A stretch of 32,000 nucleotides of DNA from assembly GCF_000196355.1 (NCBI RefSeq), contig NC_007614.1, positions 2,610,001-2,642,000 of the forward strand, in the 5' to 3' direction. The notes under the pieces are model-generated. The model was not told where the DNA came from, made no database searches, and saw only the letters and a list, made by a program, of their open reading frames with translations. Position numbers and translations under genes: made by a program. Each line of letters opens with the position of its first letter. The stretch's first letter is position 1. Source of the stretch: Nitrosospira multiformis ATCC 25196. GTDB taxonomy: Bacteria > Pseudomonadota > Gammaproteobacteria > Burkholderiales > Nitrosomonadaceae. Shown here one piece after another: positions 4,401-32,000 of this stretch.

Positions 4401-4500
4401 AACTGACGATATCGAGCTGAATGTCGGGCGCGCGTTTTTTCAGCTCCAATCGCACCAGATCGGCATCCAGCGCATTATCCTCAAGGTACAGCACTCTCAT
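1423..4500 (-). CDS. Hybrid c-di-GMP signalling protein: REC-REC-PAS-GAF-GGDEF-EAL
   Basis: 1025 aa. REC1 has E-D, TDLNLPDGSG, LTGSS and DYVIKH. REC2 has LLLDYRLPG but a degenerate acidic pocket. A PAS-like segment follows (IGIWEWNTATNEMIWNDRMYEIYG), then a GAF-like segment. The GGDEF domain has an intact RLGGDEF and an RxxD I-site (RSCD) 5 residues upstream. The EAL domain has EALLRW, DDFGTGYSSL, KIDRAF, EGVET and QGYYFSQP. Confidence 0.9.
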   Translation of the reverse strand: MRVLYLEDNALDADLVRLELKKRAPDIQLDIVSSLAEALHRVERFQDLYGTSLGIPIAKPAVSTRYDIVLTDLNLPDGSGETLLAQIRRRHLPLPVVVLTGSSREEAILSLLRAGADDYVIKHGRFLETLGLVLRATLDKFQTETYRRATVLQVLYVEPNPHDAETMKQALASTAPHLRIESVQSAEEVFSYLAEQDRKTDVDVLLLDYRLPGASATDVLKELCQVRGLDLPIILFIGSEDEEIARQSLKLGAADYVVKTAGYLQRLPTVIENVWLRAESNRRERVLLEERTRLALATEAAAIGIWEWNTATNEMIWNDRMYEIYGIAPGSRITYDIWKSYTHPDDLPQQEMHLERVSAENGRVQLDFRILREHKTVRHLHIAKALKWSTNPDELRIVGTAIDITKRKQTDFAIQEHAMQQGLIAAFGQQALASGNLALLWGQAAVIASQGLNVEFCKALQLAPDFRSFVLKSGVGWQKDWIGRQISFTYENSQNRFVLASHQSVIVEDFQTETRFKPSSILKSHNIRSCADVLISGAGGPYGILGAYSPEPQRFTSSSINFLQSLANILATAIDRKTTEERLTYLAQFDPLTELPNRSLFLDRLRQAMEHAHRNRRRVGVVFADLDRFKIVNDTMGHSTGDELLIHVAKRLQQCVRSCDTVARLGGDEFALILSDLVQPEDATLIAEKVISALQVPFELETQEIYVSASLGISIYPGDGTDADSLLRNADTAMFQAKEQGPAIYQFYLPQMNERAVARLKIETQLRGALARREFVLHYQPKASLINGEITGFEALLRWQHPAHGLVPPLQFISVLEDTGLIVAVGEWVVKTVCEQIREWQGQGLVLHPIAINLSARQFQQQDLDSIIGETLRATNIDPRLLEFELTESVLMKEAEMAANALQNLKAFGVQISMDDFGTGYSSLAYLKRFPLDVLKIDRAFIRDVTTDPDDATITVAMIKLAHSLGLKVVAEGVETRAQLEFLIRHGCDEMQGYYFSQPLPLEGASKVLMGGYRLSMSNGICAEQ

Positions 4501-5084: not shown

Positions 5085-7097
5085 CTATAAGGCCTGTTCC
5101 TGCAACTGCTCGAATGGCATAAGGCCAGACAGTGGCAGTTGCAGGTAAAAGACAGCACCGGCACCTACCTGGCTTTCCGCCCACACCCGTCCTCCCATAC
5201 GCTCCATCGCTTTTTGCACCATTGCAAGCCCGATGCCCGTCCCCGGATATTCCTCGGCCCGTTGCAAGCGCTGGAATATCTCAAAAATTTTGTCGTAAAA
5301 ACGCATATCGAATCCAATACCGTTGTCGCGCACGCAAAGAATGCAATTGCTATCCGAAGTCCAGGCACGGATTTCGATGGTGGGCTCTGGAGCATGGATG
5401 GAGAACTTGACAGCGTTATCGACCAGGTTGCGTAGAGCGATCGCAAGACCATCGGGATCAGCGCGAACGTGGAAATCATCCATACTGACAGTGAGGCGCA
5501 CGTTCTGCAGATTATCCCCAAACTGGGCCAACACCTTTGATACGAAAGCGGGAAGCCTGATGACCATCGAAGACAGTTTTCGCCGCTCAAGTTTCGAGTA
5601 GGAGAGCAGATCTTCGATTAAATCCGTCATATGCTTGGTGGCTGAACGGACATTTGTCAGAAAACTGCGACCTTCCTCGTCGAGGCGTTCGTAGTAGTTT
5701 TCCAGCAACAGCCGGCTGTACCCGGCTATCCCACGCAGGGGCGCCCTCAGATCATGCGATACCGAATAACAGAAATTTTCCAGTTCCTTGCTCTTGGCAA
5801 GAAGCTGGGCAGTACGCTCATTCACCTTGTATTCAAGATTAACCTTGGCGTCACGCAAGGCTTCCTCCGCCTGTTTGCGCTCGGTGATATCCTTAATGGT
5901 AAGAAAAGCCAGCCCTTTACTGTTCTCGTAGCGCAAAACCGTTCCGGAATAACTGAAGATTCTCAACCACTCTTTATCCAGCCGCCTGATGCGCAGTTCC
6001 AGATCATGCAGGTGTTCGCCCCGGAGAATACGCGTCAAAGGCCATTGATCTATAGGCACGACGTTGCCCTCGGTTGTCGATAACTCATAGATCCGGGCAA
6101 AATTATGAAGACTGCCAAAAACTTCTTCCGCATTCTCGATCTCATGCATTCGCAAAGCGGCAGGATTCCAGCGGAGAAGATTACGATTGAAATCGGAGAT
6201 GATAAGCCCCTCGCTCATATGCTCCATCACCACCTGAAGCCGCTTTTCTGTCTCACGCTGCGCCTCTTCCCGGAGTCTCTGATCGTGGACGTCGGTATTG
6301 GTCCCGAACCACTGCACAACCTGACCGTCCTCGTTTCTTAACGGCTCGGCGCGGGTCAGAAATACCCGGAGTTCCCCGTCTGCACCCCGCAGTGGAATTT
6401 CCATATCGAGCGGCTGCTCAGCAGCAGTAGCTTCGCTCCAACGTTTTATTACCTCCGGCAGCAGCTGGGGATCATGAACCTTTTGCCAGCCCCAGCCCAT
6501 CATCTCTTCGGGAGTGGTGCCGGTATAGTCGTACCAGCGCTGGTTGTACCAGGATCTGGAGCCGTCCGTCTCCCCTATCCATGCAAGCTGCGGGATAGTA
6601 TTGACCATTGTCCGGAAGCGCGCCTCATTTGCACGCAACTTCGCCTCTGCGCGGCGGCGGGCGGTGAGATCGAACGCCATTACAAGAAATTGCACTTGCT
6701 CGGGGCGGGTGGACAGCTCCAGGTGAACCTCGACCGGATAATGCGTACCGTCCGCGCGCAGATGGGTCGCCTCGAACACCAGGATTTCTTTCCCACCCTT
6801 CATGAGTGGATCAATCAAAGCCCGGAACGATGTCTCGTCGAACTCGCGTTCGACTTCCAGCAGCGTCATCTTTTGCAGCGAATCCATGCTGTAGCCAAGA
6901 TTGCGCCGGGCTCCCCGGCTGGCGTACTCGAAATGCAGTGTCTGAGCATTCAGCAGATAAATTTCGTTCAGACTCTGATCGAGAATTTCTGCAATCGGGG
7001 TACGAACATTCTCCACAGTGGTAAGACGGGTCATATCGCGAGCGTTCTCAGAAGCGCACGCAACACTCCCTGTGTAGTTTTGGTTTAGGGATATCAT
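5085..7097 (-). CDS. Multi-PAS sensor histidine kinase
   Basis: 670 aa. Three PAS/PAC-like repeats. Coiled-coil linker into the H-box FCYSVSHDLRAPLRGIAGY. HATPase_c motifs are present: N-box LRNLVDNAVKF, DNGIGF and GTGIGLAMV. The start could be an internal Met (MTRLTT) instead. Confidence 0.88.
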   Translation of the reverse strand: MISLNQNYTGSVACASENARDMTRLTTVENVRTPIAEILDQSLNEIYLLNAQTLHFEYASRGARRNLGYSMDSLQKMTLLEVEREFDETSFRALIDPLMKGGKEILVFEATHLRADGTHYPVEVHLELSTRPEQVQFLVMAFDLTARRRAEAKLRANEARFRTMVNTIPQLAWIGETDGSRSWYNQRWYDYTGTTPEEMMGWGWQKVHDPQLLPEVIKRWSEATAAEQPLDMEIPLRGADGELRVFLTRAEPLRNEDGQVVQWFGTNTDVHDQRLREEAQRETEKRLQVVMEHMSEGLIISDFNRNLLRWNPAALRMHEIENAEEVFGSLHNFARIYELSTTEGNVVPIDQWPLTRILRGEHLHDLELRIRRLDKEWLRIFSYSGTVLRYENSKGLAFLTIKDITERKQAEEALRDAKVNLEYKVNERTAQLLAKSKELENFCYSVSHDLRAPLRGIAGYSRLLLENYYERLDEEGRSFLTNVRSATKHMTDLIEDLLSYSKLERRKLSSMVIRLPAFVSKVLAQFGDNLQNVRLTVSMDDFHVRADPDGLAIALRNLVDNAVKFSIHAPEPTIEIRAWTSDSNCILCVRDNGIGFDMRFYDKIFEIFQRLQRAEEYPGTGIGLAMVQKAMERMGGRVWAESQVGAGAVFYLQLPLSGLMPFEQLQEQAL

Positions 7098-13406: not shown

Positions 13407-14003
13407 ATGCTGAACGATCCTGTTGTTCTCATCCTGATGTACTTTATTCTGCCACTTTGGCTGGCGGCCGGATTCGCGGATTGGCTGTGCCATCGTGTGT
13501 CTCATATCGAAACGACCAGCGGGGCAAAGGAGTCTGTCTTCCATCTCATCATGCTCGCCGAGATGGGCCTGCCCTTGCTTGCCGCCATTTTCCTTCAGGT
13601 AAACGCCGGGATTATCGCCTTCATGATTGCCGCCTTTTTCCTCCATGAGATCACCGCGCTTTGGGATGTGAGCTATGCGGTAAAGGTACGCAGGGTCTCA
13701 CCCATCGAGCAGCACGTGCACAGCTTCCAGGAGATGATTCCACTCATGGCAATCCTGCTCTTGATCTCCCGTCACTGGGGGCAATTCCAGGCGCTTTTCG
13801 GGTTCGGACCCGAAACGCCGCGGTTCGACCTCTCCTGGAAGGAAGAGCAGCTGCCGGTAATTTACATAATTTCCATCATGACGGTTGCGCTGCTGTTCGA
13901 GATTATCCCCTTTGTAGAGGAGTTCTTACGCGGGCTGCGCGCGAACCACGGGAAGCTTGTGCCCACGAAAGCCTGGACGGGCGACGACGAGAATCCCGAG
14001 TAG
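13407..14003 (+). CDS. Integral membrane protein of unknown function with conserved-looking His clusters
   Basis: 198 aa with 4-5 predicted TM helices. His motifs are HRVSH (HX3H), FHLIM, LHEITALWD and QHVHSFQE. Starts 16 nt after the recQ-like stop. I recognise no family. Confidence 0.6.
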   Translation: MLNDPVVLILMYFILPLWLAAGFADWLCHRVSHIETTSGAKESVFHLIMLAEMGLPLLAAIFLQVNAGIIAFMIAAFFLHEITALWDVSYAVKVRRVSPIEQHVHSFQEMIPLMAILLLISRHWGQFQALFGFGPETPRFDLSWKEEQLPVIYIISIMTVALLFEIIPFVEEFLRGLRANHGKLVPTKAWTGDDENPE

Positions 14004-18671: not shown

Positions 18672-18764
18672 TGGCGGAGAGGGTGGGATTCGAACCCACG
18701 TGCCAGGTTACCCTGACCATCTGATTTCGAGTCAGCGCCGTTATGGCCACTTCGGTACCTCTCC
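18672..18764 (-). tRNA. tRNA-Ser (anticodon CGA), CCA encoded
   Basis: The 93-nt reverse strand reads GGAGAGGTACCGAAGTGGCCATAACGGCGCTGACTCGAAATCAGATGGTCAGGGTAACCTGGCACGTGGGTTCGAATCCCACCCTCTCCGCCA. Acceptor stem GGAGAGG/CCTCTCC of 7 bp. Anticodon loop CT-CGA-AA. Long variable arm (class II). T-arm GTGGG-TTCGAAT-CCCAC. Confidence 0.93.
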
Positions 18765-20408: not shown

Positions 20409-21047
20409 ATGACCTTACGCTTAGGCGATACCGCCCCCGATTTCGAACAGGAATCCTCCATTGGCAGGATCAAATTTCACGAATGGATAGATGATTCCTG
20501 GGCAGTATTGTTTTCTCATCCCGCGGATTACACGCCAGTGTGCACAACCGAGCTGGGAATGACAGCCAAGCTCAAGTCTGAATTCGACAAACGTAATGTG
20601 AAGGCGATCGGGTTGTCGGTGGATCCTGCGGCAAAACATACCGGATGGATCAAGGATATCGAGGAAACGCAAGGTTGTACCGTCGCTTTTCCCATTATTG
20701 CGGACGAAGACAGAAAGGTCGCGGCACTATATGACATGATTCACCCGAATCAGTCGGAAACCATGACAGTGCGCTCGCTTTTTGTGATCGACCCGAAGAA
20801 GAAAGTGCGGCTTATCCTCACCTACCCCATGAGCACCGGACGCAATTTCGATGAGGTGCTGCGGGTGATCGATGCGCTGCAATTGACCGATAACTATACG
20901 GTCGCCACCCCGGCCAACTGGAATGACGGCGGTGATGTGATTATCCCGCTGACTATCCAGGATGAGGCAGTGATCAAGCAGAAGTTTCCGAAAGGCTATA
21001 CCGCTCCACGTCCCTATCTGCGCATCACGCCCCAGCCGAATAAATAA
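20409..21047 (+). CDS. 1-Cys peroxiredoxin (Prx6 subfamily)
   Basis: 212 aa. MTLRLGDTAPDFE, then FSHPADYTPVCTTELG with the peroxidatic Cys in the PVCTTE motif. Length and C-terminal extension fit Prx6-type enzymes. Confidence 0.9.
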   Translation: MTLRLGDTAPDFEQESSIGRIKFHEWIDDSWAVLFSHPADYTPVCTTELGMTAKLKSEFDKRNVKAIGLSVDPAAKHTGWIKDIEETQGCTVAFPIIADEDRKVAALYDMIHPNQSETMTVRSLFVIDPKKKVRLILTYPMSTGRNFDEVLRVIDALQLTDNYTVATPANWNDGGDVIIPLTIQDEAVIKQKFPKGYTAPRPYLRITPQPNK

Positions 21048-21217
21048 ACCCGGGCCCGAATAGTAGCATTGGCTGGCCGCCAAACACCGTTACCCTTATC
21101 AGGTGGAGCCCGGCTTACGGTATGCAGCTCAGGAGTCCGCCTCTGCCCGGGGTCGACCCTGGGTAAAGTCCAGTCTGATATTGAATGCTTCTTGCAGAAT
21201 ACCCGCCCGTAATAACT

Positions 21218-22636
21218 TCACTCTGCGCCGGGTAGATTCCCCTCCGGCTGGAACCAGGCGAGTTTTCGGTGCAGATTCACAACCTCCCCCACGATAACGA
21301 GAGTGGGGGGAACGAGATGGGCGGCAGCGGTCAACTCGGGAAGCGTTTCGAGGGTAGCGGCAAGCACCCGCTGCTTGCGGGTGGTGCCCTGCTGCACGAT
21401 TGCAGCGGGAGTGTTATTGGGCAGACCGTGTGCGATCAGTTGTTTGCATAGCACGGTCAATCCAAGCAATCCCATGTAAACCACGATGGTCTGCTTCGGT
21501 CGCGCCAGCATTGGCCAGTCCAGATCCACACTGCCATCCTTCAGGTGTCCGGTAACGAATATACAGGACTGGGCGTAATCCCGATGTGTGAGCGGAATGC
21601 CTGCATAGGATGCAGCCCCATTAGCAGCAGTAATGCCGGGCACCACTTCGAAGGGAATTCCGTGTCCCGCAAGCGTTTCGATTTCCTCGCCACCGCGACC
21701 AAAAATAAACGGGTCTCCACCTTTCAGGCGCAACACGCGCTTGCCTTCCTTAGCCAGGCGCACCAGCAAATCATTGATCGACTCCTGCGGCATCGTGTGG
21801 CGGTTACGTTCCTTGCCGGCATAAATCCGGGGAGTATCGCGCCGCAGCATATCCAGGATTTCCGGTGACACGAGCCTATCGTACACGACCACGTCTGCCT
21901 GCTGCATGAGTCGCATGGCCCTAAAAGTCAGCAGTTCAGGGTCGCCGGGCCCGGCCCCTACCAGATACACCTCTCCCTTGACCGGTTCTTCGGTTTCATT
22001 TTCGAGCTCACGCTCGAGCCAGGCCTTTGCTGCCTGATCCTTGCCTGCGAACACCATTTCCGCAAACGGTCCCTGCAATACCCGCTCCCAGAACCGGCGG
22101 CGCTGGGCCGGCTGCGAAAAACGATGTTTTACCCTGTCGCGGAACTCGCCAGCGTATGCAGCCAGGCGTCCGTAAGCCATAGGGATCATGGTTTCCAGAC
22201 GCGCTCGCAGCAGCCTTGTCAGAACAGGGGATGCACCCCCGCTCGAAACCGCGACAACAACCGGCGTCCGATCCACGATCGACGGCATGATGAAGGAGCA
22301 TAGGCCAGGATTATCGACGACATTGACAGGAATGCGCAGCCGCTTGGCTGCTTCCGAGATTCTTTGATTGACGGCGAAATCATCCGTGGCCGCGATGACG
22401 AGAACAGCGTCTGCCAGATGCTCGTCCTGGAAAGTTTCGGCACGGTAAGCCAGCTTTCCTTCCCGTGATTGTTCATTCAGTTGTTCCAGCAGTTCGGAAC
22501 AAAGCCGCGGAGCGACTACGGTAACGTGCGCTCCTGCGCGTAGCAGCATTGCGACCTTGCGCGCGGCGACTTCTCCTCCGCCTGCCACCACACAGTTGCG
22601 ATCATGGATATCGAGAAAAATCGGCAGGAAATTCAC
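21218..22636 (-). CDS. cysG: Siroheme synthase (precorrin-2 dehydrogenase/ferrochelatase + uroporphyrinogen-III C-methyltransferase)
   Basis: N-terminal NAD domain (NFLPIFLDIHDRNCVVAGGGEVAARK) and C-terminal SUMT domain (VYLVGAGPGDPELLT, RLKGGDPFIFGRGGEE). I place the start at the GTG at 22636, because homologues begin 2-3 aa before LPIF. The track ATG at 22726 would add 30 aa and is the alternative. Confidence 0.85.
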   Translation of the reverse strand: MNFLPIFLDIHDRNCVVAGGGEVAARKVAMLLRAGAHVTVVAPRLCSELLEQLNEQSREGKLAYRAETFQDEHLADAVLVIAATDDFAVNQRISEAAKRLRIPVNVVDNPGLCSFIMPSIVDRTPVVVAVSSGGASPVLTRLLRARLETMIPMAYGRLAAYAGEFRDRVKHRFSQPAQRRRFWERVLQGPFAEMVFAGKDQAAKAWLERELENETEEPVKGEVYLVGAGPGDPELLTFRAMRLMQQADVVVYDRLVSPEILDMLRRDTPRIYAGKERNRHTMPQESINDLLVRLAKEGKRVLRLKGGDPFIFGRGGEEIETLAGHGIPFEVVPGITAANGAASYAGIPLTHRDYAQSCIFVTGHLKDGSVDLDWPMLARPKQTIVVYMGLLGLTVLCKQLIAHGLPNNTPAAIVQQGTTRKQRVLAATLETLPELTAAAHLVPPTLVIVGEVVNLHRKLAWFQPEGNLPGAE

Positions 22637-22838
22637 TTTTTTGGCTTGAATGAGGAAGAAGTCTTTTCCATACTTTACCCGAAAATACTCTTCCGGGTTA
22701 GGGCGCCGTGAACCTGGCTGCAGCATGGCCGGTTGTATCAGTCGAGGTTATGAATTTGGCTTCTTTTCCAGGTAAATTTTTCATACCGCGCCTTATTTGC
22801 TATGATGCATTCTCTCGCTTCGTGCGAACCGCCTCTTC

Positions 22839-23678
22839 ATGCTCAATATCGATCTGCACTGCCATTCCACGGTTTCCGATGGTTTACTGACTCCTACCCA
22901 GTTGGTGGAGCATGCGGCTGCGCGCGGGGTGGAGGTGCTGGCGCTGACCGATCACGATGATATCGGCGGCCTGGAGGAGGCGCGCAAGGCTGCGGATAAA
23001 AACGGCGTTCTGTTTATCGATGGCGTGGAAATCTCCGTCAGTTGGCGTGGACAGACTGTGCATATCGTGGGGCTGGGAATCGATCCCGCTGACCCCCAAC
23101 TGGTCGAAGGCCTGAGTACCATCCGCCAGGGCAGGACGATGCGCGCACGCAATATTGCAGCCCAACTAGACAAATTCGGTATTCACGGCAGTTTCGAGGG
23201 TGCCCGCAGGAATGCGGGCAATGGACTGATCGGCCGCATGCACTTTGCGCGTTTTCTGGTTGAGCAGGGTTATGCGAAGGATGTGCGAACGGTATTCAAG
23301 AAATATCTTGTAAAAGGTAAACCAGGCTATGCTCCCCATCAATGGGTCTCGCTGAGTGAGGCAGTAAACTGGATCCGCAGCAGTGGCGGCAGAGCTGTGA
23401 TCGCCCATCCGGGACGTTATAAATTAGGCAAGGATGCACTGGAAGAACTGCTGCTGGAGTTTCAGACCCTGGGCGGGGAAGCTATAGAAGTGGTCACCGG
23501 TAGCCATACATTCGAACAATCCCTGCTTTTCGCCAACCATAGCCGACGCCTGGGATTACTGGCCTCGCGCGGGTCCGATTTTCATGGGCCGGGCGAGAGT
23601 TATTTCGACCTCGGTGGAATGCCTCCTTTACCTGCCAACTGTGCCCCTGTCTGGCATGACTGGTCCGGGCTGATGTAA
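22839..23678 (+). CDS. trpH: PHP-domain phosphoesterase (TrpH/YciV, RNase AM-like)
   Basis: 279 aa. MLNIDLHCHSTVSDG metal-binding start, LALTDHD, and AHPGRY. It is followed by a yciO-like gene, as in enterobacterial trpH-yciO. Confidence 0.8.
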   Translation: MLNIDLHCHSTVSDGLLTPTQLVEHAAARGVEVLALTDHDDIGGLEEARKAADKNGVLFIDGVEISVSWRGQTVHIVGLGIDPADPQLVEGLSTIRQGRTMRARNIAAQLDKFGIHGSFEGARRNAGNGLIGRMHFARFLVEQGYAKDVRTVFKKYLVKGKPGYAPHQWVSLSEAVNWIRSSGGRAVIAHPGRYKLGKDALEELLLEFQTLGGEAIEVVTGSHTFEQSLLFANHSRRLGLLASRGSDFHGPGESYFDLGGMPPLPANCAPVWHDWSGLM

Positions 23679-23741
23679 GGCGAAAATCGCGTCCACTTTT
23701 TATGAGAGCGGCATTCCAAAAATTCAAATTTCTGTTGCTAC

Positions 23742-24374
23742 GTGGCCCAATTCTTTTCCATTCACCCCGATAATCCCCAGCCGCGGCTGATACGGCAGAC
23801 TGCGGCCATCGTGCGGGCGGGGGGCGTGATCGTATGTCCGACTGATTCCTGTTACGCGCTGGGGGGGCAGCTGGGCGACAAGAACGTCATGAGCCGTATT
23901 CGCGCACTGCGCGGAGTGGATGAGGATCACCATTTCACCCTCATGTGCCGGGACTTTACGGAAATCTCGCGCTACGCCAAATTCGATAACACCGAATACC
24001 GGTTGCTCAGGGCCTGCACCCCGGGTTGCTACACATTTATCTTTCAGGCTACCCGGGAGGTGCCGCGGCGCCTGCTGCATCCCAGGCGCAATACGATCGG
24101 TATGAGAATTCCGGACCAGGCTGTCGTCCAGGCACTGCTGGCGGAACTGAATGAACCCCTGCTGAGCTCTACCCTGATACTGCCGGGGGAGGCGCTTCCA
24201 CTTAACGATCCTCTGGAAATCCGTGCACGTCTCGAGCATCAGGTGGAGCTGATACTGGATAGCGGCGCCTGCGGCCTGGAGATGAGCACGGTGGTTGATC
24301 TGACCGGGGATACGCCTGTGGTAGTCCGGCAAGGCAAAGGTAGCCTCGCACCCTTTGGAATGCCGAATGGATAG
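23742..24374 (+). CDS. yciO: Sua5/YciO/YrdC-family protein (YciO-like, single domain)
   Basis: 210 aa. VIVCPTDSCYALG, then SRIRALRGVDEDHHFTLMC, and STVVDLTGD near the C-terminus. No Sua5 C-terminal domain. Confidence 0.8.
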   Translation: MAQFFSIHPDNPQPRLIRQTAAIVRAGGVIVCPTDSCYALGGQLGDKNVMSRIRALRGVDEDHHFTLMCRDFTEISRYAKFDNTEYRLLRACTPGCYTFIFQATREVPRRLLHPRRNTIGMRIPDQAVVQALLAELNEPLLSSTLILPGEALPLNDPLEIRARLEHQVELILDSGACGLEMSTVVDLTGDTPVVVRQGKGSLAPFGMPNG

Positions 24375-25017
24375 CATTATCCAGAGCATAGCCATTTATG
24401 CGCTTCCGGTCATTTTTGCCATCACGCTGCATGAAGCTGCACACGGTTATGTGGCCAAGCATTTCGGCGATCTCACCGCCTATACGCAGGGGCGCGTCAG
24501 CCTTAATCCCATACGCCATATCGACCCGCTGGGGACCATCGTTCTGCCGATCGTGACGATGCTGCTCGGGGGAATCCTGTTCGGCTGGGCCAAGCCGGTG
24601 CCAGTCAACTTCTCCGCGTTGCGCAATCCCAAGCAGGACATGATGTGGGTGGCACTCGCCGGGCCGGGCGCCAATCTCTTCATGGCAATACTTTGGGGAT
24701 TCGTCATCAAGTTTGCTCTCGGGTTGCCACAGGACGGACTGGCCGAACCCCTGATATTGATGGGTGAGGCAGGAATCAAAATCAACGTCGTGCTGATGGT
24801 GCTGAATCTCTTGCCTCTGCCACCGCTCGATGGAGGCCGGGTTGCGGTAAGCCTGCTGCCGCCCCGCCTGGCCTATAATTTTTCGAAGATCGAGCCTTAC
24901 GGCTTCATGATCCTTTTGTTTCTGCTGGCGACGGGCGTACTCGGGGCTGTTATGGGACCGCTGATTGCAATCACGATCCATTTGATGGCGTTGTTTTTTG
25001 GTTTCGCTACTTATTGA
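24367..25017 (+). CDS. Site-2 protease family (M50-like) membrane zinc metalloprotease
   Basis: Start MDSIIQSIAIYALPVIFAITLHEAAHGY places the HExxH inside TM1. Multiple TM helices follow. LNLLPLPPLDGG is the second metal-ligand motif. Its ATG overlaps the yciO stop (ATGGATAG). Confidence 0.8.
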   Translation: MDSIIQSIAIYALPVIFAITLHEAAHGYVAKHFGDLTAYTQGRVSLNPIRHIDPLGTIVLPIVTMLLGGILFGWAKPVPVNFSALRNPKQDMMWVALAGPGANLFMAILWGFVIKFALGLPQDGLAEPLILMGEAGIKINVVLMVLNLLPLPPLDGGRVAVSLLPPRLAYNFSKIEPYGFMILLFLLATGVLGAVMGPLIAITIHLMALFFGFATY

Positions 25018-25067
25018 ACTGCTTCTCTACATAAGGATTCTGATTGGAGTTACCGAGGCAATGATCT

Positions 25068-26270
25068 ATGTTCGCTGATCGTGTTTTGTCGGGAATGCGG
25101 CCGACGGGAGGCCTGCATCTGGGGCATTATCATGGGGTGCTCAAAAACTGGATAGAACTGCAACACCAGTTTGAGTGCCTGTTCTTTGTCGCCGACTGGC
25201 ATGCCCTCACAACCCATTACGATACGCCGGAAATCATCGAAGAGCATGTCTGGGACATGGTGATCGACTGGCTTGCAGCCGGTGTCGACCCGGCCCAGGC
25301 GACGTTGTTCATACAGTCGCGTGTTCCCGCACACGCAGAGTTGCACGTGCTGCTTTCCATGATCACCCCGCTCGGCTGGCTGGAACGTGTCCCGTCCTAC
25401 AAGGATCAGCAGGAAAAGCTGGTTGAAAAAGAATTGAACACATATGGCTTCCTTGGATACCCCTTGCTGCAAAGCGCGGACATCCTTATTTACCGGGCTA
25501 CACGAGTGCCGGTGGGAGAGGATCAAACGCCGCATATCGAGTTCACCCGGGAAATTGCGCGACGCTTTAATCATGTCTACGGCAAGGAGCCTGGATTCCA
25601 GGAAAAGGCGGAAGCGGCGATCAAGAAACTGGGGTCCCGAAAAGCCCGCCTCTATCGGGACTTGAGGAATCGCTATCAGGAACAGGGAGACGACGAAGCG
25701 CTTGCGGCGGCGAAGTCATTGCTGGATGAGCAGCAAAATTTGAGCATGGGTGACCAGGAACGCTTGTTCGGGTATCTGGAAGGCGGTGGAAAGATGATTC
25801 TTTCCGAGCCGGAAGCGATGCTGACGAAAGCGTCGAAAATGCCAGGGCTGGACGGGCAGAAGATGTCCAAGTCTTATAACAACACCATTACCCTGCGTGA
25901 AGATCCGGAGAGCGTCACGAGAAAGATTCGTACGATGCCGACCGACCCCGCCCGGGTGCGGCGTACCGACCCCGGAACCCCGGAGAAGTGCCCGGTATGG
26001 CAATTCCATCTCGTATACTCGGACGAAGATACGAAGAGGTGGGCTTATGAGGGCTGTATCACTGCTGGTATCGGCTGTCTGGACTGCAAGCAGCCTGTCA
26101 TCGATGCAATACTGACCGAGCAGCGGCCAATGCATCAACGCGCGCGCATGTACGAAGAAGAGCCTTCACTGGTGCGAAATATCATTGCTGACGGTTGCGA
26201 GAGGGCCGATAAGCTGGCACAGGAAACCATGCGTGAGGTGAGAGAGGCAATGGGACTGGATTATTCCTGA
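25068..26270 (+). CDS. trpS: Tryptophan--tRNA ligase (long form, ~70-aa insertion)
   Basis: 400 aa. Class I signatures GGLHLGHY (HIGH-type) and KMSKS, plus GYPLLQSADIL and VPVGEDQTPHIE. Confidence 0.92.
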   Translation: MFADRVLSGMRPTGGLHLGHYHGVLKNWIELQHQFECLFFVADWHALTTHYDTPEIIEEHVWDMVIDWLAAGVDPAQATLFIQSRVPAHAELHVLLSMITPLGWLERVPSYKDQQEKLVEKELNTYGFLGYPLLQSADILIYRATRVPVGEDQTPHIEFTREIARRFNHVYGKEPGFQEKAEAAIKKLGSRKARLYRDLRNRYQEQGDDEALAAAKSLLDEQQNLSMGDQERLFGYLEGGGKMILSEPEAMLTKASKMPGLDGQKMSKSYNNTITLREDPESVTRKIRTMPTDPARVRRTDPGTPEKCPVWQFHLVYSDEDTKRWAYEGCITAGIGCLDCKQPVIDAILTEQRPMHQRARMYEEEPSLVRNIIADGCERADKLAQETMREVREAMGLDYS

Positions 26271-26353
26271 TTTTTGCTTTGCGCGGGCACATGGGCAATG
26301 CAGCCGCATCGACGCGTGCTATCTGTCATAGACGTTGCTCGACTTACCCAAGA

Positions 26354-27202
26354 ATGAACGACTTTCAAAGCCTTTCCACAGAGGAATCTCCTGCCCCGGC
26401 AGGGACAAATCCTGCGGTAAATCCCATTGCCCGGATACATGGCGAGCCGGTGACGGAGATCCCATCGGATTTATATATTCCACCGGATGCGCTGGAAGTA
26501 TTTCTCGATACGTTTCAGGGGCCACTGGACCTGCTGCTTTATCTTATTCGCAAGCACAATCTGGATGTACTCGATATAGCGATGGCGGAACTCACGCGTC
26601 AATATTTGGCTTATATCGAAATGATGCGTGCGAATAAACTGGAACTGGCTGCGGAATACCTTTTGATGGCGGCTGTGCTGATCGAAATCAAGTCGCGGAT
26701 GTTACTGCCTAAGCCCGTTGCCAAGGGGAATGAGGATGAGGTCGACCCGCGAGCAGAACTGGTGCGGCGTCTGCTGGAATACGAGCAGATGAAGGTCGCC
26801 GGGCAGAAGCTCAACAAGTTGCCCCAGGCAGAACGCGATTTTGCGCTGACAAACGTATGGATCGAGCAAAAGGTGATTGAACGCCTGCCGGAAGTCAATG
26901 CCGATGATCTTCGCAATGCGTGGCTTATCCTGATGGCGCGCCTGAACGTAAATCGCAGGCACAATATCACGCGGGAAGAACTTTCAGTCCGCGAACATAT
27001 GACCCGTATCCTGCGGCATGTGCAGGGACACCATTTTGTGGAATTCAGCGATTTATTTAATGCCGCTGCCGGAGCAGCGGAGCTTGTGGTGACGTTTCTG
27101 GCGTTATTGGAGCTTGTGAAGGAACGCCAGGTGGAGGTCAGTCAGCCGTCCGCTTTTGGAATGATTTATGTCCGACCGATCAGCGTCCTTACCACCGTCT
27201 AA
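26354..27202 (+). CDS. scpA: Segregation and condensation protein A
   Basis: I trimmed to the ATG at 26354 (MNDFQSL). [32 protein letters not shown] is the canonical ScpA N-terminal region. C-terminal winged helix [13 protein letters not shown]. Confidence 0.88.
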
Positions 27203-27803
27203 TTTCTCCGTTTCATCCCCTGCTCAGGTTAAAAAGGTTCTGGAAGCTGCATTACTTACCAGCCCGGAACCCCTCCCTCTGGCGGAACTGAAAAAACTGT
27301 TCGCGGGTGAACTGGGCTCGGAAATCCTGCGGCGCCTGCTGGACGAGTTGAACAGAGACTGGGAAGGAAGAGGGGTGGAACTCGTGCAGGTCGCAGGCGG
27401 GTGGCGCTTTCAGGCTCGAGCGGAAATGCAGGAATTTCTCGACCGCCTCAATCCGCAAAAGCCACCCCGCTATTCGCGGGCGGTATTGGAAACGCTCGCC
27501 ATCATTGCGTATCGCCAGCCGGCGACGCGCGGGGATATCGAGGAGATACGGGGCGTTGCGGTCGCAAGTTCAGTGCTAAAGGCACTGGAATCAAGAGGCT
27601 GGATATCTGCCGTCGGTCACCGTGAGGTACCGGGTCGACCCATCTTGTATGCTACGACCGTTGAATTTCTTAATGATCTTGGACTTCGCTCCCTGGAAGA
27701 ATTGCCGCCATTGGAAGAACTGGGCTCACTGATTGAACCGAAGGAAAGCGTGGAACAACTGCCTGATCCAGAGAACATGCCCCAACCAGGCAATCCCGAT
27801 TGA
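27168..27803 (+). CDS. scpB: Segregation and condensation protein B
   Basis: 211 aa. [46 protein letters not shown] and [13 protein letters not shown]. Overlaps the scpA end by 35 nt. Confidence 0.88.
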
Positions 27804-28152
27804 ACATGAGGGGGCCAGGAGGAGTTATGGCTCAATTGTAATTCAAGGCAGCCTTCCTTCCGGAAAGACTGCATTTCGCCTTTCTCCCTTCCCCTCTTCT
27901 GATCATGAACTCCCCGCCGTATTTTTGCTTCCGGCTGTATTGCCTGGTTTTCCCTGCGCCCTGACCTGGAGGGCGGTATCTGCCTGTCGAAGGGAGCGGC
28001 GCGGGGATGCCCTGTAAAGGAACGCATGCTGTCAAGGCAGGCAGGTCGGGGCGTCAGCGGGCAGCTGAACCTGCCCGGACTGCTCCAAGGGCGCTCAAGG
28101 GGGATGGCGCTCCCTTCGCCCCGATCCTGGCATCCTTTCCACTACCGCTTGG

Positions 28153-30261
28153 CTAGTGCACATGCTCGCCTGGTGGGGGCAGGATCTCCTCTTCGCGGTT
28201 GAGCTGCGCTATCTGCTGCATCAGCATGTCGGAGGCGGACCAGCCTGCGCCATCGAGTTCGGGTATCCAGCGCGCCCGCAGGTAGCCGAAGCGGTCCACC
28301 AGGAACTCCATGTGGTCAGGCAGCGTGCCTGCGCCCAGGAGGTCCGGATGGGAGAGCGTGCGCCGGAACAGGGCATAGCTGCGCACGATCTCCTCCGCCC
28401 CTTCGGTCACGATGGGGAAGTGAACGCCCGCCTTGAGCTGGCCCAGCGCGGCAGCACTCAGGTCATGCTCGGGCACTGCCAGAAGCACCGTGTTGCCGGC
28501 CTGCAGCTTTGCATGGAGCGCTTCCAGTTGCGCCAGGCGCTCGCGGGATTGCGGCCAGGAGAATAATACCAGCAGCACGTTCTTCTGGTTGCGGAAGTCC
28601 TTCAGGGTGCCGCTTGAGCCATCCTGCGCCACATACGAGAAATTGGGCGGGCCCATGTTGGGCTGCGGCTGCTCGGGCTTGACAGCGGGACTCATCAGGC
28701 GCGCCTGGTAGCCGCGCGACATGGCGTGCAGGAAGTTCACCACGTCCCAGCGGTCTTCCTCATCGAGCTTGTCGCCAAAGGAGGGCATGCCGGTATCGGG
28801 GATGCCGAAGGAGAGCCAGTGGAAGAAGTCGCCTGCGGTATGGCGGGCCGTGTGCGGTTCGGTCAAGAGGTCCACCGGCGGCTTGGCAAAGCTCTTGGCC
28901 ATCACGCCGTCGCCCTTGCCCTGCAGCCCGTGACAGGCCACGCAGTTCTCGGCAAAGTGGACGGCGCCATTGGAAATGGAGATGGTGTCAAACGGCACCG
29001 GCGTCTTGCGGTAGGTCTCGGGATAGGCATCCACCGTCAAGGGCGGCAGGCCCACGCCCAATCCGATGACCGCCAGGAGGACAGGCAACCCGAAGCGCAG
29101 CTTTTTGTCCCAGTGCTTCCTGCGCCCATAGAAGACTGCGGCTGCGGCCAGAACGAGCAGGGCGATGCCGCCGTAGACGCGCGGCATGATGACAGGCTCC
29201 CCCCAGGTGGCCGCAAGGGAGAAACGGAAGGAATAGGGCCAGTCCTGGATCAGGGCGTGCTTGGCAGGAACCGTGTTGGCCACGATGGTGGCAAGCAGCA
29301 CTATCCCTAAGGCCAGCCCGAATTCCAGGCTCACCCATTTCCTGAGTTTGCGCCCGCCGTTATCCGCTCCTTTTGCGCCTGCGTCCTCGTAGAACAGCGG
29401 CAGCCAGCTCGAGCGCGCGCGCGAGGCGATGATGAGCACCATCATGAGCAGGGCGATCTTGCCATTGAGCAGCCAGCCATATTTGGTGGCAACCAGGCCG
29501 CTGTAGTTGGTATCGACCATGCGGTAGGTGATGAGGATGCCGGTTGCAATCACCGCCAGCATGACGGGCAGCGCCAGGGTGGAGAAGCGCCGCAGGGCCT
29601 GGGCATCATGCCGGAAAGCTTCCTCGCGCGACTGGAATACGGCGTGGATGCGCTGGAGCGCCTGCGTCTGCAGGGCAGGCTGCGTTCCGGCGCTTCCGGC
29701 TTGCGCCTGCTTCAATTCGCTCTGGGGCTTGCAGGCAAAGCAGACCACCAGGAAAGCCGGCAGGGCGCCAAACCAGACGCTGCCCAGGATGATGTGCAGG
29801 GCGTAGGGCAGAAGCGAGACGACCGAGAGGTCCTCGGCTGCGGCGTGGCTGGCAAGCGAGCCGACCCCTAGGGTCAAGGCCGCCACACTTGCGCACAGGA
29901 TGTATTGCCAGCGTGCGGGCGGGGAGAAGCGGATGTAGAGGGCAATGGCAAAGACGACGAGCGCGCAGGCGGCGCGCGCGAGCCAGATATGCCCCATGCG
30001 CGTATTCTCCATGAGGGAGAGCCAGGCGGCCGGATGCCAGGCGTTCTCGTCAATCCCGGTGGCTTGCGCCGTGGTGGTCGCCAGGATGCCGAACAGGCCG
30101 GTGAGCAGGATGAGGGCAAGCCACGGCAGCGCACGCTCCACCCGCGTGACCCAGGGCGAGTGGACGGAGCCGGCAATGGCCAGAAACACGCAGCCCCCCA
30201 CCAGGATCATGTTGGACGCCAGCTGCGCCCAGCGCAGGAGCGTCGCGATGACCTCGATCAT
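28153..30261 (-). CDS. copD: CopD-family copper-resistance membrane protein fused to a class I cytochrome c domain and a Cys-less thioredoxin-fold domain
   Basis: 702 aa. Residues 1-410 form about 10 TM helices of CopD type. Residues ~425-520 carry the heme motif CVACH (28930..28944) and the distal GMPSF Met. Residues ~540-690 show a beta-alpha-beta pattern (NVLLVLFSWPQSRERL, TVLLAVP, EFLVDRFGYLRARW) resembling AhpC/TSA or TlpA folds, but with no cysteine. The start overlaps the copC stop (ATGA at 30258..30261). Confidence 0.8.
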   Translation of the reverse strand: MIEVIATLLRWAQLASNMILVGGCVFLAIAGSVHSPWVTRVERALPWLALILLTGLFGILATTTAQATGIDENAWHPAAWLSLMENTRMGHIWLARAACALVVFAIALYIRFSPPARWQYILCASVAALTLGVGSLASHAAAEDLSVVSLLPYALHIILGSVWFGALPAFLVVCFACKPQSELKQAQAGSAGTQPALQTQALQRIHAVFQSREEAFRHDAQALRRFSTLALPVMLAVIATGILITYRMVDTNYSGLVATKYGWLLNGKIALLMMVLIIASRARSSWLPLFYEDAGAKGADNGGRKLRKWVSLEFGLALGIVLLATIVANTVPAKHALIQDWPYSFRFSLAATWGEPVIMPRVYGGIALLVLAAAAVFYGRRKHWDKKLRFGLPVLLAVIGLGVGLPPLTVDAYPETYRKTPVPFDTISISNGAVHFAENCVACHGLQGKGDGVMAKSFAKPPVDLLTEPHTARHTAGDFFHWLSFGIPDTGMPSFGDKLDEEDRWDVVNFLHAMSRGYQARLMSPAVKPEQPQPNMGPPNFSYVAQDGSSGTLKDFRNQKNVLLVLFSWPQSRERLAQLEALHAKLQAGNTVLLAVPEHDLSAAALGQLKAGVHFPIVTEGAEEIVRSYALFRRTLSHPDLLGAGTLPDHMEFLVDRFGYLRARWIPELDGAGWSASDMLMQQIAQLNREEEILPPPGEHVH

Positions 30262-30683
30262 TTCGCGGCGGCTTTGTTCTTTATCGTGAAGTCGTGGGAC
30301 GAGTCAACCACATGCCCGTCCACCGACAGCACCCGGAACTTGACCGTGTACTTGCCCGGGCTCAATTCCGGCAGGGGCAGAACGATGGCTTTGGGGTCGT
30401 TGGCATCGATATGCGGTTTGGTTTCGGTGACAGGGGTCTTGGAGGCGTCGAGTACGGAGAGTGCGGCATAGTCCTTTTCGACTTCTTCGTTGAAGAACAG
30501 CCGCACCTGGGTGGGGGCCTGGGTCAGTTGCGCGCGGCGCGCAGGTTCTGCCTTGACCAGCATGGCGTGCGCCAGCGCCGGGCTGCTGTGCAGCCCCGCT
30601 ACCAGCAGCAGGAACGACAAAAGGCTGCCTGCCAGTAAGTGAACACTTGCTCTCCTGTCGGCAGATATCATCGATGGTTGCAT
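30258..30683 (-). CDS. copC: CopC copper-binding periplasmic protein (Cu(II)-site-only type)
   Basis: I trimmed to the ATG at 30683, which has AGGAG 6 nt upstream. Signal peptide ends ...SSPALA, so the mature protein starts HAMLVKAEP with an N-terminal His ligand. SVDGH (DxH) lies near the C-terminus. There is no Met-rich Cu(I) loop. PGKYTVKFRVLSVDGH is the classic CopC end. Confidence 0.88.
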   Translation of the reverse strand: MQPSMISADRRASVHLLAGSLLSFLLLVAGLHSSPALAHAMLVKAEPARRAQLTQAPTQVRLFFNEEVEKDYAALSVLDASKTPVTETKPHIDANDPKAIVLPLPELSPGKYTVKFRVLSVDGHVVDSSHDFTIKNKAAAK

Positions 30684-30964
30684 TTTTGCTCCTCTTATAT
30701 GGGCTCTGCACCCGAAGATCGGGCTTCGGGCAGCCACTGTGGTCCTTGTCTTTTTTATTTGTCCCCGGTTGTTCTTGTTCGATCTGCACCCGGTTGACTT
30801 TTTTGTTCCTGCCTTATTGCATCTTGGACTCTTTCCCGCGCTTATGGTTCAGAGGGGGAGCCAGGCCGCGGCCCATGCCCGGGGTGCCCCCTGCACAAAG
30901 GGACTGCGGCGAGCCCAAGCTCAAGTCAACCTGAAGTCAGCGCTTACTCTCTTCCTTCCCTTTG

Positions 30965-31555
30965 CTAGGCGCTTGCACCGGCGGATTTGCGTCCGCGCAG
31001 GAAGAAGACGGCCGCTCCTATGATCACCGCCGCAATGGCGATGATGAGGTAGGGCGACATGCCCTTGGGTTCACCCACGGAGAAGGGGAAGCGCGAGACC
31101 AGCGGTTCCTTGTCGGTGACGGTCACGAGCCCCACGAACTTGCCAGGCTGGGTGAAGTTGTATTCAAAATTGATGGAGCCATTGGGATAGACCTTGGGCG
31201 GTATGTGCAGGATGGTGATTTCATCGAGCTTCTGCTGTTCGTCGGGAGCGGGCTGTCCGCCTGAACCGGTGTCGCGGATGATGCGCACTTCGGTGGGCAG
31301 GGGGCGCAGCGCTTCTTCAATGTAGTCCAGGGCAACTACGGTGCGGCCGGTATTGGGAATGTCTTCGCAGAATTCCTTCTCCTGCGTGGCATCCGGCTGG
31401 TAGCCGGTAAAGTGCATGGTGTAGGGGCCGATGGTGAGCTTGCATATATCATCGGCAAGCGACAGGCCGCCGTGCGCTTCCACCTGGGAGGAGAAGGGCA
31501 GGGCCAGGGCAAATACCAGTCCGATCAAGGCAGGTTTGAGTGAGGATGAGAACAT
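30965..31555 (-). CDS. Secreted, C-terminally membrane-anchored protein; PmoD/AmoD-like architecture (family assignment tentative)
   Basis: I trimmed to the ATG at 31555, giving 196 aa. Signal peptide MFSSSLKPALIGLVFALALPFSSQVEA, so the mature N-terminus is HGG. A beta-rich domain of about 150 aa contains C-x8-M-H (CKLTIGPYTMH) and a second Cys. It ends in a single TM helix (YLIIAIAAVIIGAAVFFL) with a basic tail. It is a paralog of the next gene upstream. Confidence 0.75.
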   Translation of the reverse strand: MFSSSLKPALIGLVFALALPFSSQVEAHGGLSLADDICKLTIGPYTMHFTGYQPDATQEKEFCEDIPNTGRTVVALDYIEEALRPLPTEVRIIRDTGSGGQPAPDEQQKLDEITILHIPPKVYPNGSINFEYNFTQPGKFVGLVTVTDKEPLVSRFPFSVGEPKGMSPYLIIAIAAVIIGAAVFFLRGRKSAGASA

Positions 31556-31704
31556 TATCAATTCGCCTATATAAGTATGGTGAGTCAGTGAATCAGTGAT
31601 CCTGCAGGGTCGCGGTTGCATTTATCCGCCGCTGTTTTGCCAGGCTTGTGTCCGGCGCTCCTCTGCAACGGCAGGAGCCGGTTTATCCGGTGACCTTTCC
31701 TGCA

Positions 31705-32000
31705 TTACGGGTTGCGCGAGGAGCGCCAGCGTTGCACGCGCGGGGATTTCACGAGCTTGTATCCCAGCACGGCAAGCAGCAGCAGGGCGATCAGGGGGCC
31801 TACCGCGGCGCGGAATATTTCGGAATAGTTGATCATCTGTACCCGCAGGGGATACTGGTAGCGCAGGGGCGGCACGCCTTCTGCGGTGATGAATACGGTG
31901 TAGAGTCCCTGCTCGAGGGTGGTCTGGCCCTGGATGACACCATCCGGATGGTGCACAGGACGCAGTTGCGTGACCATCTCGTCCTCTTCGCTCGTGCCCC
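31705..32000 (-). CDS. Paralog of the 30965..31555 product, C-terminal part only (5' end beyond the window)
   Basis: The reading frame stays open to the window edge (GTSEEDE precedes the tracked Met). It aligns with the downstream paralog: HPDGVI/YPNGSI, GLYTVFITA/GKFVGLVTV and PLRYQYPLRV/PLVSRFPFSV. It has the same C-terminal TM helix (AAVGPLIALLLLAVLGY) and basic tail. Confidence 0.7.
   Translation of the reverse strand, partial: GTSEEDEMVTQLRPVHHPDGVIQGQTTLEQGLYTVFITAEGVPPLRYQYPLRVQMINYSEIFRAAVGPLIALLLLAVLGYKLVKSPRVQRWRSSRNP

Follow-up and report, generated by a model that had tools for sequence, protein, structure and literature searches.

Gene content and order

The final 4 kb of the window (the whole stretch of 32,000 nucleotides analysed) are filled, from 28153 to 32000, by four co-oriented genes on the minus strand, with each ORF lying where the earlier note had placed it. 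In gene order these are the 3′ part of amoE (orf4), comprising the last 97 codons and the stop (31705..32000, stop codon 31705..31707), whose reading frame continues to the edge of the window; amoD (orf5), of 196 aa (30965..31555); copC, of 141 aa (30258..30683, ATG at 30683); and an ORF of 702 aa encoding a CopD fusion (28153..30261, stop codon 28153..28155). The note had also expected any monooxygenase genes to lie beyond position 32000, and this is where they are found. Positions 20965..32000 are 100% identical to contig FNVK01000006.1 of a Nitrosospira multiformis draft assembly (GCA_900108135.1), on which amoB, amoA and the 3′ end of amoC come directly past position 32000. That contig ends inside amoC, presumably since amoCAB is multi-copy; the whole of amoC is present on an identical Logan contig. 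The order read on these contigs is AmoC, AMO (amoA), Monooxygenase_B (amoB), two proteins of 196 aa, CopC and CopD. We put the probability at about 90% that 28153..32000 belongs to one of the amo operons of the soil nitrifier N. multiformis, amoC-amoA-amoB-amoE-amoD-copC-copD, as its accessory tail for copper handling.

Such a tail is an ordinary feature, published before. Earlier papers describe the amoCABED-copCD layout as well as the PmoD/AmoD family and the fusion of CopD with cytochrome and thioredoxin domains. The betaproteobacterial order named in the earlier note, amoCAB-orf4(amoE)-orf5(amoD)-copCD, is that of this cluster (PMC6189053, PMC13058606, PMC10472526), and two of these papers treat the layout together with PmoD function (PMC6189053, PMC13058606). 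Gene order is identical in Nitrosomonas europaea and in N. multiformis ATCC 25196 (Nmul_A2320-2326 and Nmul_A2760-2766). AmoD, CopC and CopD are identical in sequence to the products of Nmul_A2320-2322 and Nmul_A2760-2762, with no difference of substance between the present cluster and those entries. AmoD corresponds to WP_041352601.1, Nmul_A2322 and Nmul_A2762; GenBank starts it at an upstream ATG (218 aa), whereas RefSeq and the present analysis give 196 aa. N. multiformis carries three copies of amoCAB and two each of amoE, amoD and copCD (PMC10472526), and proteomics of this organism has detected CopC and CopD (PMC5960693). The synteny is also seen in N. lacus (two copies), in Nitrosovibrio tenuis and on a comammox-type contig.

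The AmoE and AmoD pair

By sequence, AmoE and AmoD belong to the PmoD family: both are cupredoxin-like and periplasmic, and both are tethered to the membrane. In a phmmer search of the PDB, AmoD matches PmoD (6cpd_A, E=2.4e-24) over query residues 36-161, which correspond to the entire crystallised domain, and full-length AmoE matches the same structure at E=2.5e-9. The top Foldseek match of the AlphaFold (AF2) model of AmoD is likewise 6CPD (E=1e-11, TMt 0.83). Overall confidence is low for both AF2 models (mean pLDDT 62-64). The homology and copper-related fold that the earlier note proposed tentatively are borne out. Its alternative, in which the pair would form an uncharacterised family of partners of CopCD, is excluded.

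The note had further described the pair as paralogous secreted proteins with C-terminal anchors. Hydropathy agrees, giving each protein an N-terminal signal-like hydrophobic segment and a single C-terminal hydrophobic helix. In AmoD, signal peptide cleavage is predicted between VEA and H28, and the membrane helix lies at about 30986..31054. The C-terminal helix of AmoE is encoded inside the window (31705..32000), its signal peptide and metal-ligand motif beyond position 32000. Paralogy, on the other hand, could not be read from the window itself. The 97 AmoE residues encoded there are identical to the C-terminus of a 196-aa gene (L001:2671-3261) but have no detectable similarity to AmoD (BLASTP E=9.7), so that only the full-length AmoE of the identical contig shows the relationship (28% identity, E=9e-19).

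PmoD from Methylocystis sp. Rockwell (6CPD; Fisher et al. 2018, PMC6189053) shares the signal peptide, cupredoxin-like domain and C-terminal membrane helix, and pmoD likewise lies between the monooxygenase genes and copCD. Alpha-methanotrophs have one such gene, however, where beta-AOB have two paralogs in tandem. AmoD is about 40% identical to PmoD over the domain and has the same two invariant Cys in its periplasmic part. Regular-expression searches place its motif, C38-x8-M47-H48...C63, at 31367..31444, and the invariant residues are present across 27 homologues; in AmoE such searches find Cx7MxH...C, the CuA ligand set of PmoD. These are the subclass motifs described for AmoD (Cx8MH...C) and AmoE (Cx7MxH...C), and the motif classes examined spectroscopically in that work exclude the AmoD-type Cx8MH (PMC6189053). 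AmoD thus differs from PmoD in having Cx8MH in place of Cx7MxH, and also in having Lys and Thr at the crystal-contact ligands Met42 and Met44. Whereas the operon PmoDs of alpha-methanotrophs begin EGGAGPEAM, AmoD and AmoE begin with a predicted N-terminal His. This His is conserved in AmoD/AmoE, a sequence pattern that looks unpublished.

CopC and the CopD fusion

CopC matches Pfam CopC (1.2e-22, 81 bits; cut-off 23.3), and its product is identical to ABB75612.1/ABB76048.1. Its best relative in the PDB is the CopC of Methylosinus trichosporium OB3b (5icu_A, E=8e-17), of the Cu(II)-only class, to which it is only roughly 40% identical, the Nitrosospira copper site being predicted from the alignment. 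In that alignment, His1 of the 5ICU chain falls on His39 (30567..30569) and SDGH on VDGH, whose Asp-Gly-His ligands are residues 122-124 (30312..30320). CopC is predicted to be a periplasmic Cu(II)-only binder, as the earlier note had it, because His39 is the predicted first mature residue, the D-G-H ligands align and the CopC sequence, like that of 5ICU, has no Met-rich Cu(I) loop.

The 702-aa product, identical to ABB75611.1/ABB76047.1 (named 'putative copper resistance protein D'), matches both Pfam CopD (75 bits, cut-off 32.1) and Cytochrom_C (4.9e-16, 60 bits, cut-off 21.3; Cytochrome_CBB3, 9.8e-11), as expected of the fusion that the note had recognised. Its domains place it in the putative copper-importer family, as a polytopic protein of the inner membrane with a haem c domain in the periplasm and a thioredoxin-fold domain free of cysteine. 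The membrane core occupies residues ~1-340 (29242..30261), with roughly eight helices by hydropathy and in the AF2 model. A periplasmic His pair within it, H139 (29845..29847) and H156 (29794..29796), is invariant in 38 homologues and aligns by BLASTP with H135 and H154 of E. coli YebZ, the role of which is treated in PMC11923076. Like the YebZ and B. subtilis YcnJ importers, the protein has the CopD Pfam core and a CopC-type partner. In contrast to them, it adds two transmembrane helices and the haem c and thioredoxin-fold domains, and its identity to YebZ is only 26%. Fusions of CopD to cytochrome and Sco/thioredoxin domains make up about 4% of CopDs, including that of M. trichosporium OB3b (PMC11923076).

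The class I c-type cytochrome domain (residues about 425-516, 28714..28989) was assigned from Pfam and the CxxCH motif C440-V-A-C-H444 (28930..28944); the AF2 model has low confidence across it. C440, C443, H444 and M492 are invariant in the 38 homologues, and Met492 is probably the sixth haem ligand. The C-terminal domain (residues about 539-690, 28192..28647) resembles ResA/TlpA/DsbE-type folds in Foldseek (E about 1e-5, TMt about 0.8; pLDDT 66-89), with Pfam AhpC-TSA at 23.3 bits, under the 26-bit cut-off. The fusion contains no Cys after C443, and the usual W-C-x-x-C position is W569-P-Q-S572; therefore this domain cannot be a thiol oxidoreductase or a Sco-type copper chaperone. The extreme C-terminus, His700-Val-His702 (28156..28164), is invariant in the 38 homologues, as is P695-P-P. 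An H-x-H terminus also occurs in comammox and alpha-methanotroph CopD orthologues; this conserved C-terminal pattern in CopD fusions, known from sequence, likewise looks unpublished.

Expression and role of the cluster

GC3 is 0.75-0.84 in all seven genes versus 0.56-0.67 in their neighbours, and the start codon of copD overlaps the stop of copC in the tetranucleotide ATGA (30258..30261), a junction the earlier note had pointed out. Between genes of the cluster, the 149-nt amoE-amoD spacer (31556..31704) included, a consensus scan of the minus strand detected no site resembling a terminator, which is weak negative evidence; the RNA fold of that spacer is unremarkable (z=-1.29). Because of the shared GC3, the lack of such sites in the scan and the translational coupling of copC and copD, amoED-copCD is probably expressed together with amoCAB.

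The 281-nt amoD-copC spacer (30684..30964) could nevertheless be the site of a promoter of its own. It is long and varies in length among species (110-285 nt), which fits a different and, in our view, rather unlikely reading: amoE/amoD and copCD may be separate units adjacent by descent, copCD having its own copper-responsive promoter and providing general copper supply, for example to NirK, nitrosocyanin or cytochrome oxidase rather than to AMO specifically. That only two of the three N. multiformis amoCAB copies carry amoED-copCD (PMC10472526) also fits, as does the comammox ED1D2-copCD block, which lies upstream of amoCAB with an IS element between. Moreover, PmoD is confined to CuMMO organisms, but CopC, CopD and PCuAC are found commonly in other prokaryotes (PMC6189053). 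Yet the minus-strand scan found neither a sigma-70-like promoter consensus nor a terminator-like site in this spacer, again weak negative evidence. A short hairpin lies just 5′ of the copC ribosome-binding site, and shuffled sequences fold just as stably as the spacer (z=-0.07). Also against separate units are the single GC3 signature of the whole cluster and the occurrence of the CopD-cytochrome-thioredoxin architecture alongside PmoD-family genes in three distant lineages. Among 80 alpha-methanotroph pmoD loci, copC is directly downstream in 75 and copD is present in 71, 69 of these with the cytochrome part.

Far less credible, and largely refuted, is a resistance or detoxification module like plasmid pco/cop, merely beside amo and with unrelated membrane-anchored small proteins: the database names ('putative copper resistance protein D', 'copper resistance CopC family protein') and resistance-derived Pfam names favour it, but copA/copB (multicopper oxidase/outer-membrane partner) are absent from the cluster, the Met-rich Cu(I) site that resistance CopC/PcoC have is missing from this CopC, which scores under the NCBIfam copper_CopC equivalog cut-off (80.5 versus 95), in 71-75 of the 80 alpha-methanotroph loci pmoD is followed by copCD carrying the same fused domains, which also occurs in comammox amo clusters, and the homology of the small proteins to PmoD is clear.

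For the copper-handling tail of an amo operon, homologues (methanotroph PmoD, E. coli YebZ/YobA and B. subtilis YcnJ) suggest how the parts may work together. Periplasmic Cu(II) would be captured at the N-terminal His/Asp/His site of CopC and handed to the conserved H139/H156 pair of CopD, which may move it across or into the inner membrane. We infer that the fused cytochrome c most likely gives or takes an electron in copper transfer, for example in reducing Cu(II) to Cu(I) before transport, and that the thioredoxin-fold domain and HxH tail may be a non-thiol docking or copper-holding module. In PmoD, a dimeric CuA-like centre is built from the Cx7MxH ligand set, which AmoE shares; AmoD has Cx8MH and is predicted to bind copper. 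Together, AmoE and AmoD may support AMO at the membrane surface through copper loading, stabilisation or electron delivery.

Gene layout and identity of the locus

Four co-oriented genes occupy the minus strand at 28153..32000, as the earlier note had read from the sequence, and all of them were recovered in an ORF list of the last 6 kb. The CopD fusion gene (702 aa) spans 28153..30261; copC (141 aa) ends at 30258 and has a plausible ATG at 30683; amoD (196 aa) spans 30965..31555; and amoE is represented by its 3′ part, with a stop codon at 31705..31707 and a frame that remains open to the window edge. The overlap claimed for copC and the CopD fusion gene is evident in the junction sequence, where the stop of the former and the start of the latter share ATGA, an arrangement kept in N. 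lacus and Nitrosovibrio tenuis. The longest call for amoD begins at an upstream ATG and is 218 aa long. This is the GenBank version (Nmul_A2322/A2762; 30965..31621, ATG at 31621), and RefSeq places the start at 31555 to give 196 aa.

Any monooxygenase genes had been expected beyond position 32000, and contig extension located amoB, amoA and amoC there. By BLASTN, 20965..32000 of the window is 100% identical to positions 14001..2966 of contig FNVK01000006.1 (GCA_900108135.1); therefore, the 2965 bases of that contig that lie past 32000 hold the rest of amoE, amoB, amoA and the 3′ end of amoC, within which the draft contig ends. A complete amoC is found on a Logan contig, again with 100% identity. 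Exact look-up of the 196-aa protein likewise returned contigs with the series AmoC, AMO (amoA), Monooxygenase_B (amoB), 196 aa, 196 aa, CopC and CopD (702 aa), after which come the convergent genes scpB, scpA and trpS. Thus, on identical contigs, amoE and amoD have the copper monooxygenase (CuMMO) neighbors of their family, with amoB, amoA and amoC directly upstream. Cluster look-up shows that AmoD, CopC and CopD are each encoded at two loci in N. multiformis ATCC 25196, with identical sequences (AmoD, Nmul_A2322/A2762; CopC, ABB75612/ABB76048; CopD, ABB75611/ABB76047). This agrees with the published counts for the strain of three amoCAB, two amoE, two amoD and two copCD (PMC10472526).

The same arrangement is seen in relatives. 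In N. lacus, amoCAB-E-D-copC-copD occurs twice, and one copy adjoins scpB, scpA and trpS as the present locus does; the gene order in N. tenuis is identical. On the comammox-type contig ERZ25039492 (L012:5603-14520), amoE-amoD1-amoD2-copC-copD is followed by an IS1595-family transposase and then amoCAB, and genes for cytochrome c maturation (ccm) adjoin the block. On this contig, the third PmoD paralog has the N-terminus QHFHELD rather than HGG. A genome scan with the sequence of 6CPD, the PmoD crystal structure, as query yielded 80 alpha-methanotroph loci; copC lies just downstream of pmoD in 75 of these and copD is present in 71, with the cytochrome part in 69 of the 71 copD genes and the thioredoxin-like part in 67.

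The window from 1 to 28000 is ordinary chromosomal context. It includes genes for a response-regulator/PAS/GAF/GGDEF/EAL protein (1423..4500) and a PAS histidine kinase (5085..7097), tRNA-Ser(CGA) (18672..18764), and genes for ExbB, an S9 peptidase, RecQ helicase, an O-methyltransferase, a GH15 glucoamylase-like protein and an MltF-like transglycosylase. The rest are a peroxiredoxin gene, cysG, PHP, Sua5/YrdC, trpS, scpA and scpB.

Protein families encoded by the cluster

The two small proteins had been proposed to be PmoD/AmoD homologs, and profile and structure searches bear this out. In a phmmer search of all PDB chains, AmoD matched 6cpd_A (PmoD of Methylocystis sp. Rockwell) with E=2.4e-24 over 125 of the 128 residues of the chain, and full-length AmoE, taken from the identical contig, matched 6CPD with E=2.5e-9. 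The top PDB match of the AmoD AlphaFold (AF2) model in Foldseek is also 6CPD (E=1e-11, target-normalized TM 0.83, rmsd 2.7 Å). The mean pLDDT of this model is only 61.6, and on this low-confidence model AmoD is predicted to have a cupredoxin-like fold. Pfam and NCBIfam scans returned nothing for either protein, because no curated model exists rather than because homology is absent.

The further claim that the tandem proteins are paralogous and C-terminally anchored also holds. BLASTP found no similarity between AmoD and the 97 residues of AmoE encoded in the window, so the comparison had to use full-length AmoE, as encoded on the identical contig; this protein is 28% identical to AmoD (E=9e-19). 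Hydropathy peaks fall at residues 1-27 and 168-186 of AmoD and at 14-32 and 160-178 of AmoE, and the AF2 model of AmoD has helices at 6-18 and 168-190. Each protein is thus predicted to comprise a signal peptide, a periplasmic domain and a single C-terminal transmembrane helix, and both are membrane-tethered, cupredoxin-like members of the PmoD family. C38 and C63 of AmoD are invariant in 27 homologs, and AmoE has the corresponding C43 and C68, encoded outside the window. Biochemical study of PmoD/AmoD goes back to 2018, when the subclasses were defined as Cx7MxHxnC for AmoE and Cx8MHxnC for AmoD (Fisher et al. 2018, PMC6189053). A regular-expression search found the first pattern in the upstream protein (CVRRIGENMVH...C) and the second in the downstream protein (CKLTIGPYTMH...C). 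With Cx7MxH upstream and Cx8MH downstream, the order is therefore amoE (orf4) then amoD (orf5), as published for the amoED-copCD module of betaproteobacterial ammonia oxidizers, to which the cluster had been likened.

CopC scores 81.1 bits against PF04234 (cut-off 23.3), and its closest solved relative is 5ICU, the Cu(II)-only CopC of Methylosinus trichosporium OB3b (E=8e-17). An ALA signal-peptidase motif precedes His39, which aligns with His1 of the mature 5ICU chain, and VDGH aligns with SDGH, which provides the Asp-x-His ligands. Met occurs only once in the mature protein, at position 3, and there is neither an MxxM motif nor a Met-rich loop; with the Met-rich Cu(I) site absent, the description of this protein as a Cu(II)-only CopC is supported. 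Assignment to the Pseudomonas-type resistance CopC (NCBIfam NF033814) is rejected, as the score of 80.5 bits lies under the equivalog cut-off of 95, although the protein is a member of the CopC family nonetheless.

The CopD core of the fusion protein scores 75 bits against PF05425 (cut-off 32.1), and hydropathy together with the AF2 model indicates about 10 membrane helices. BLASTP aligns E. coli YebZ with 26% identity, placing its H135 and H154, both functionally important (PMC11923076), opposite H139 and H156, which are invariant in 38 homologs. The last CopD helix is followed by a class I cytochrome c domain (PF00034, 60.3 bits versus a cut-off of 21.3), in which both the CVACH motif at residues 440-444 and Met492 are invariant. 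Residues of about 539-690 (28192..28647) have a thioredoxin fold, with Foldseek matches to ResA/TlpA/DsbE at a TM of about 0.8 and a local pLDDT of 66-89; in Pfam, AhpC-TSA/Redoxin hits are sub-threshold (AhpC-TSA, 23.3 bits, under the 26-bit cut-off). The AF2 models, with an overall pLDDT of 62-64, were used for the AmoD domain and this thioredoxin-fold domain only, and no useful model of the cytochrome domain was obtained. From its sequence, then, CopC is expected to bind Cu(II), and CopD is a membrane protein with periplasmic heme c and thioredoxin-fold domains.

The fold of the C-terminal domain invites a role as thiol oxidoreductase or Sco copper chaperone. For the proteins of ammonia-oxidizing bacteria (AOB), we reject this role because the domain has no cysteine: none occurs after C443, and the position of CxxC is taken by WPQS, invariant in 38 homologs. 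The domain would thus have the thioredoxin/Sco fold but could not share that chemistry. Its alpha-methanotroph counterparts have two Cys, spaced 36 residues apart and not arranged as CxxC. Sequences from Nitrosospira, Nitrosovibrio and Nitrospiraceae (comammox-type) share the CopD-cytochrome-thioredoxin architecture at identities of 61-98%. This architecture is not new, since a cytochrome domain linked to a Sco1/thioredoxin-like domain has been described in about 4% of CopDs, among them the M. trichosporium OB3b protein (PMC11923076).

Transcription of the cluster

A consensus scan of 27700..32000 found no sigma-70-like promoter on either strand and no terminator-like site between genes on the minus strand; the three terminator-like sites in this interval are no more than shuffled sequence yields. 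RNA folding of the two intergenic spacers (amoE-amoD and amoD-copC) is no more stable than that of shuffled controls, and an Rfam search over the window returned only a tRNA, outside the cluster. GC3 is 0.75-0.84 in all seven genes from amoC to copD (window 28153..32000 and L004:341-7888, on a contig carrying the cluster), compared with 0.56-0.67 in neighboring housekeeping genes. Overall GC of copD is 0.65, and the last 4 kb of the window have 62% GC versus 55% elsewhere. These raised values in the amoC-copD block fit codon bias of highly expressed genes or a common origin. In earlier work, amoD and amoE were found to be co-transcribed with amoCAB (PMC6189053), and CopC and CopD proteins were detected in N. 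multiformis (PMC5960693). We infer that copCD is co-transcribed with amoCABED.

A hairpin (CCCGAAG-CCCGAT-CTTCGGG; 30690..30745, minus strand) lies in the 281-nt amoD-copC spacer, directly before the copC ribosome-binding site. It has no T-run.

Conserved histidines and proposed copper supply

The predicted mature N-terminus of AmoD is His28 (31472..31474; VEA|HGG), and that of AmoE is residue 33 (VSA|HGK), so that in each case a His precedes the first invariant Cys by 9-10 residues. This His is invariant in 27 Nitrosospira-type sequences, and AmoE from three other lineages has it too. A search of 1.84 billion proteins gave 641 clusters at E<=1e-3; of 118 family representatives taken from it, 100 carry the His. 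The His is not universal in the PmoD family: all 72 of 72 alpha-methanotroph operon PmoDs begin EGGAGPEAM, with no His near the N-terminus. Moreover, the published PmoD constructs had additional N-terminal residues, so an amino-terminal His site could not show there. The CopD fusion ends in PPPGxHVH, invariant in homologs, with H700-V-H702 encoded at 28156..28164. A C-terminal H-x-H is shared by the CuMMO-linked CopD fusions of beta-AOB, comammox (DDHVH) and alpha-methanotrophs (SLHSH, SPHQH), at identities of only about 28%.

The N-terminal His of AmoD and AmoE is reminiscent of His1 of CopC and the N-terminal His of PmoB, and could serve as an amino-terminal Cu(II) ligand; the H-x-H of CopD is a candidate metal-binding tail. 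Together with the heme c domain, this tail could make up a station at which Cu(II) is reduced as it is handed from CopC to the CopD channel. That the two motifs mark putative copper sites is a tentative suggestion from conservation, to which we would give odds of roughly one in five. Our literature search found no match for PmoD with a histidine brace and no published discussion of either the AmoD/AmoE His or the CopD H-x-H.

How might these proteins act together? By analogy with homologs, CopC would take up Cu(II) and pass copper to the His pair of CopD for transport. Our own suggestion is that the heme domain of CopD may perform a redox step on the copper during hand-off. Again by analogy, AmoE could form a dimeric CuA-like site, as shown for Cx7MxH PmoDs, and AmoD is a putative copper binder; the copper-center classes tested did not include its Cx8MH type (PMC6189053). 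Both may support ammonia monooxygenase, through copper loading or stabilization, or through electron delivery.

Overall, the finding of the earlier note is real and its interpretation correct, yet the cluster is one already described, in a species with a sequenced type strain. It has been known since the genome papers on N. europaea and N. multiformis and is without importance as a discovery; residual novelty is limited to the AmoD/AmoE N-terminal His and the CopD H-x-H. There is also an annotation gap, in that AmoD and AmoE are publicly listed as "hypothetical protein" and the PmoD/AmoD family is without a Pfam or NCBIfam model. The supply of copper and electrons to ammonia monooxygenase is of practical importance for the control of nitrification, and on this question the locus adds no new handle beyond the two conserved His motifs.
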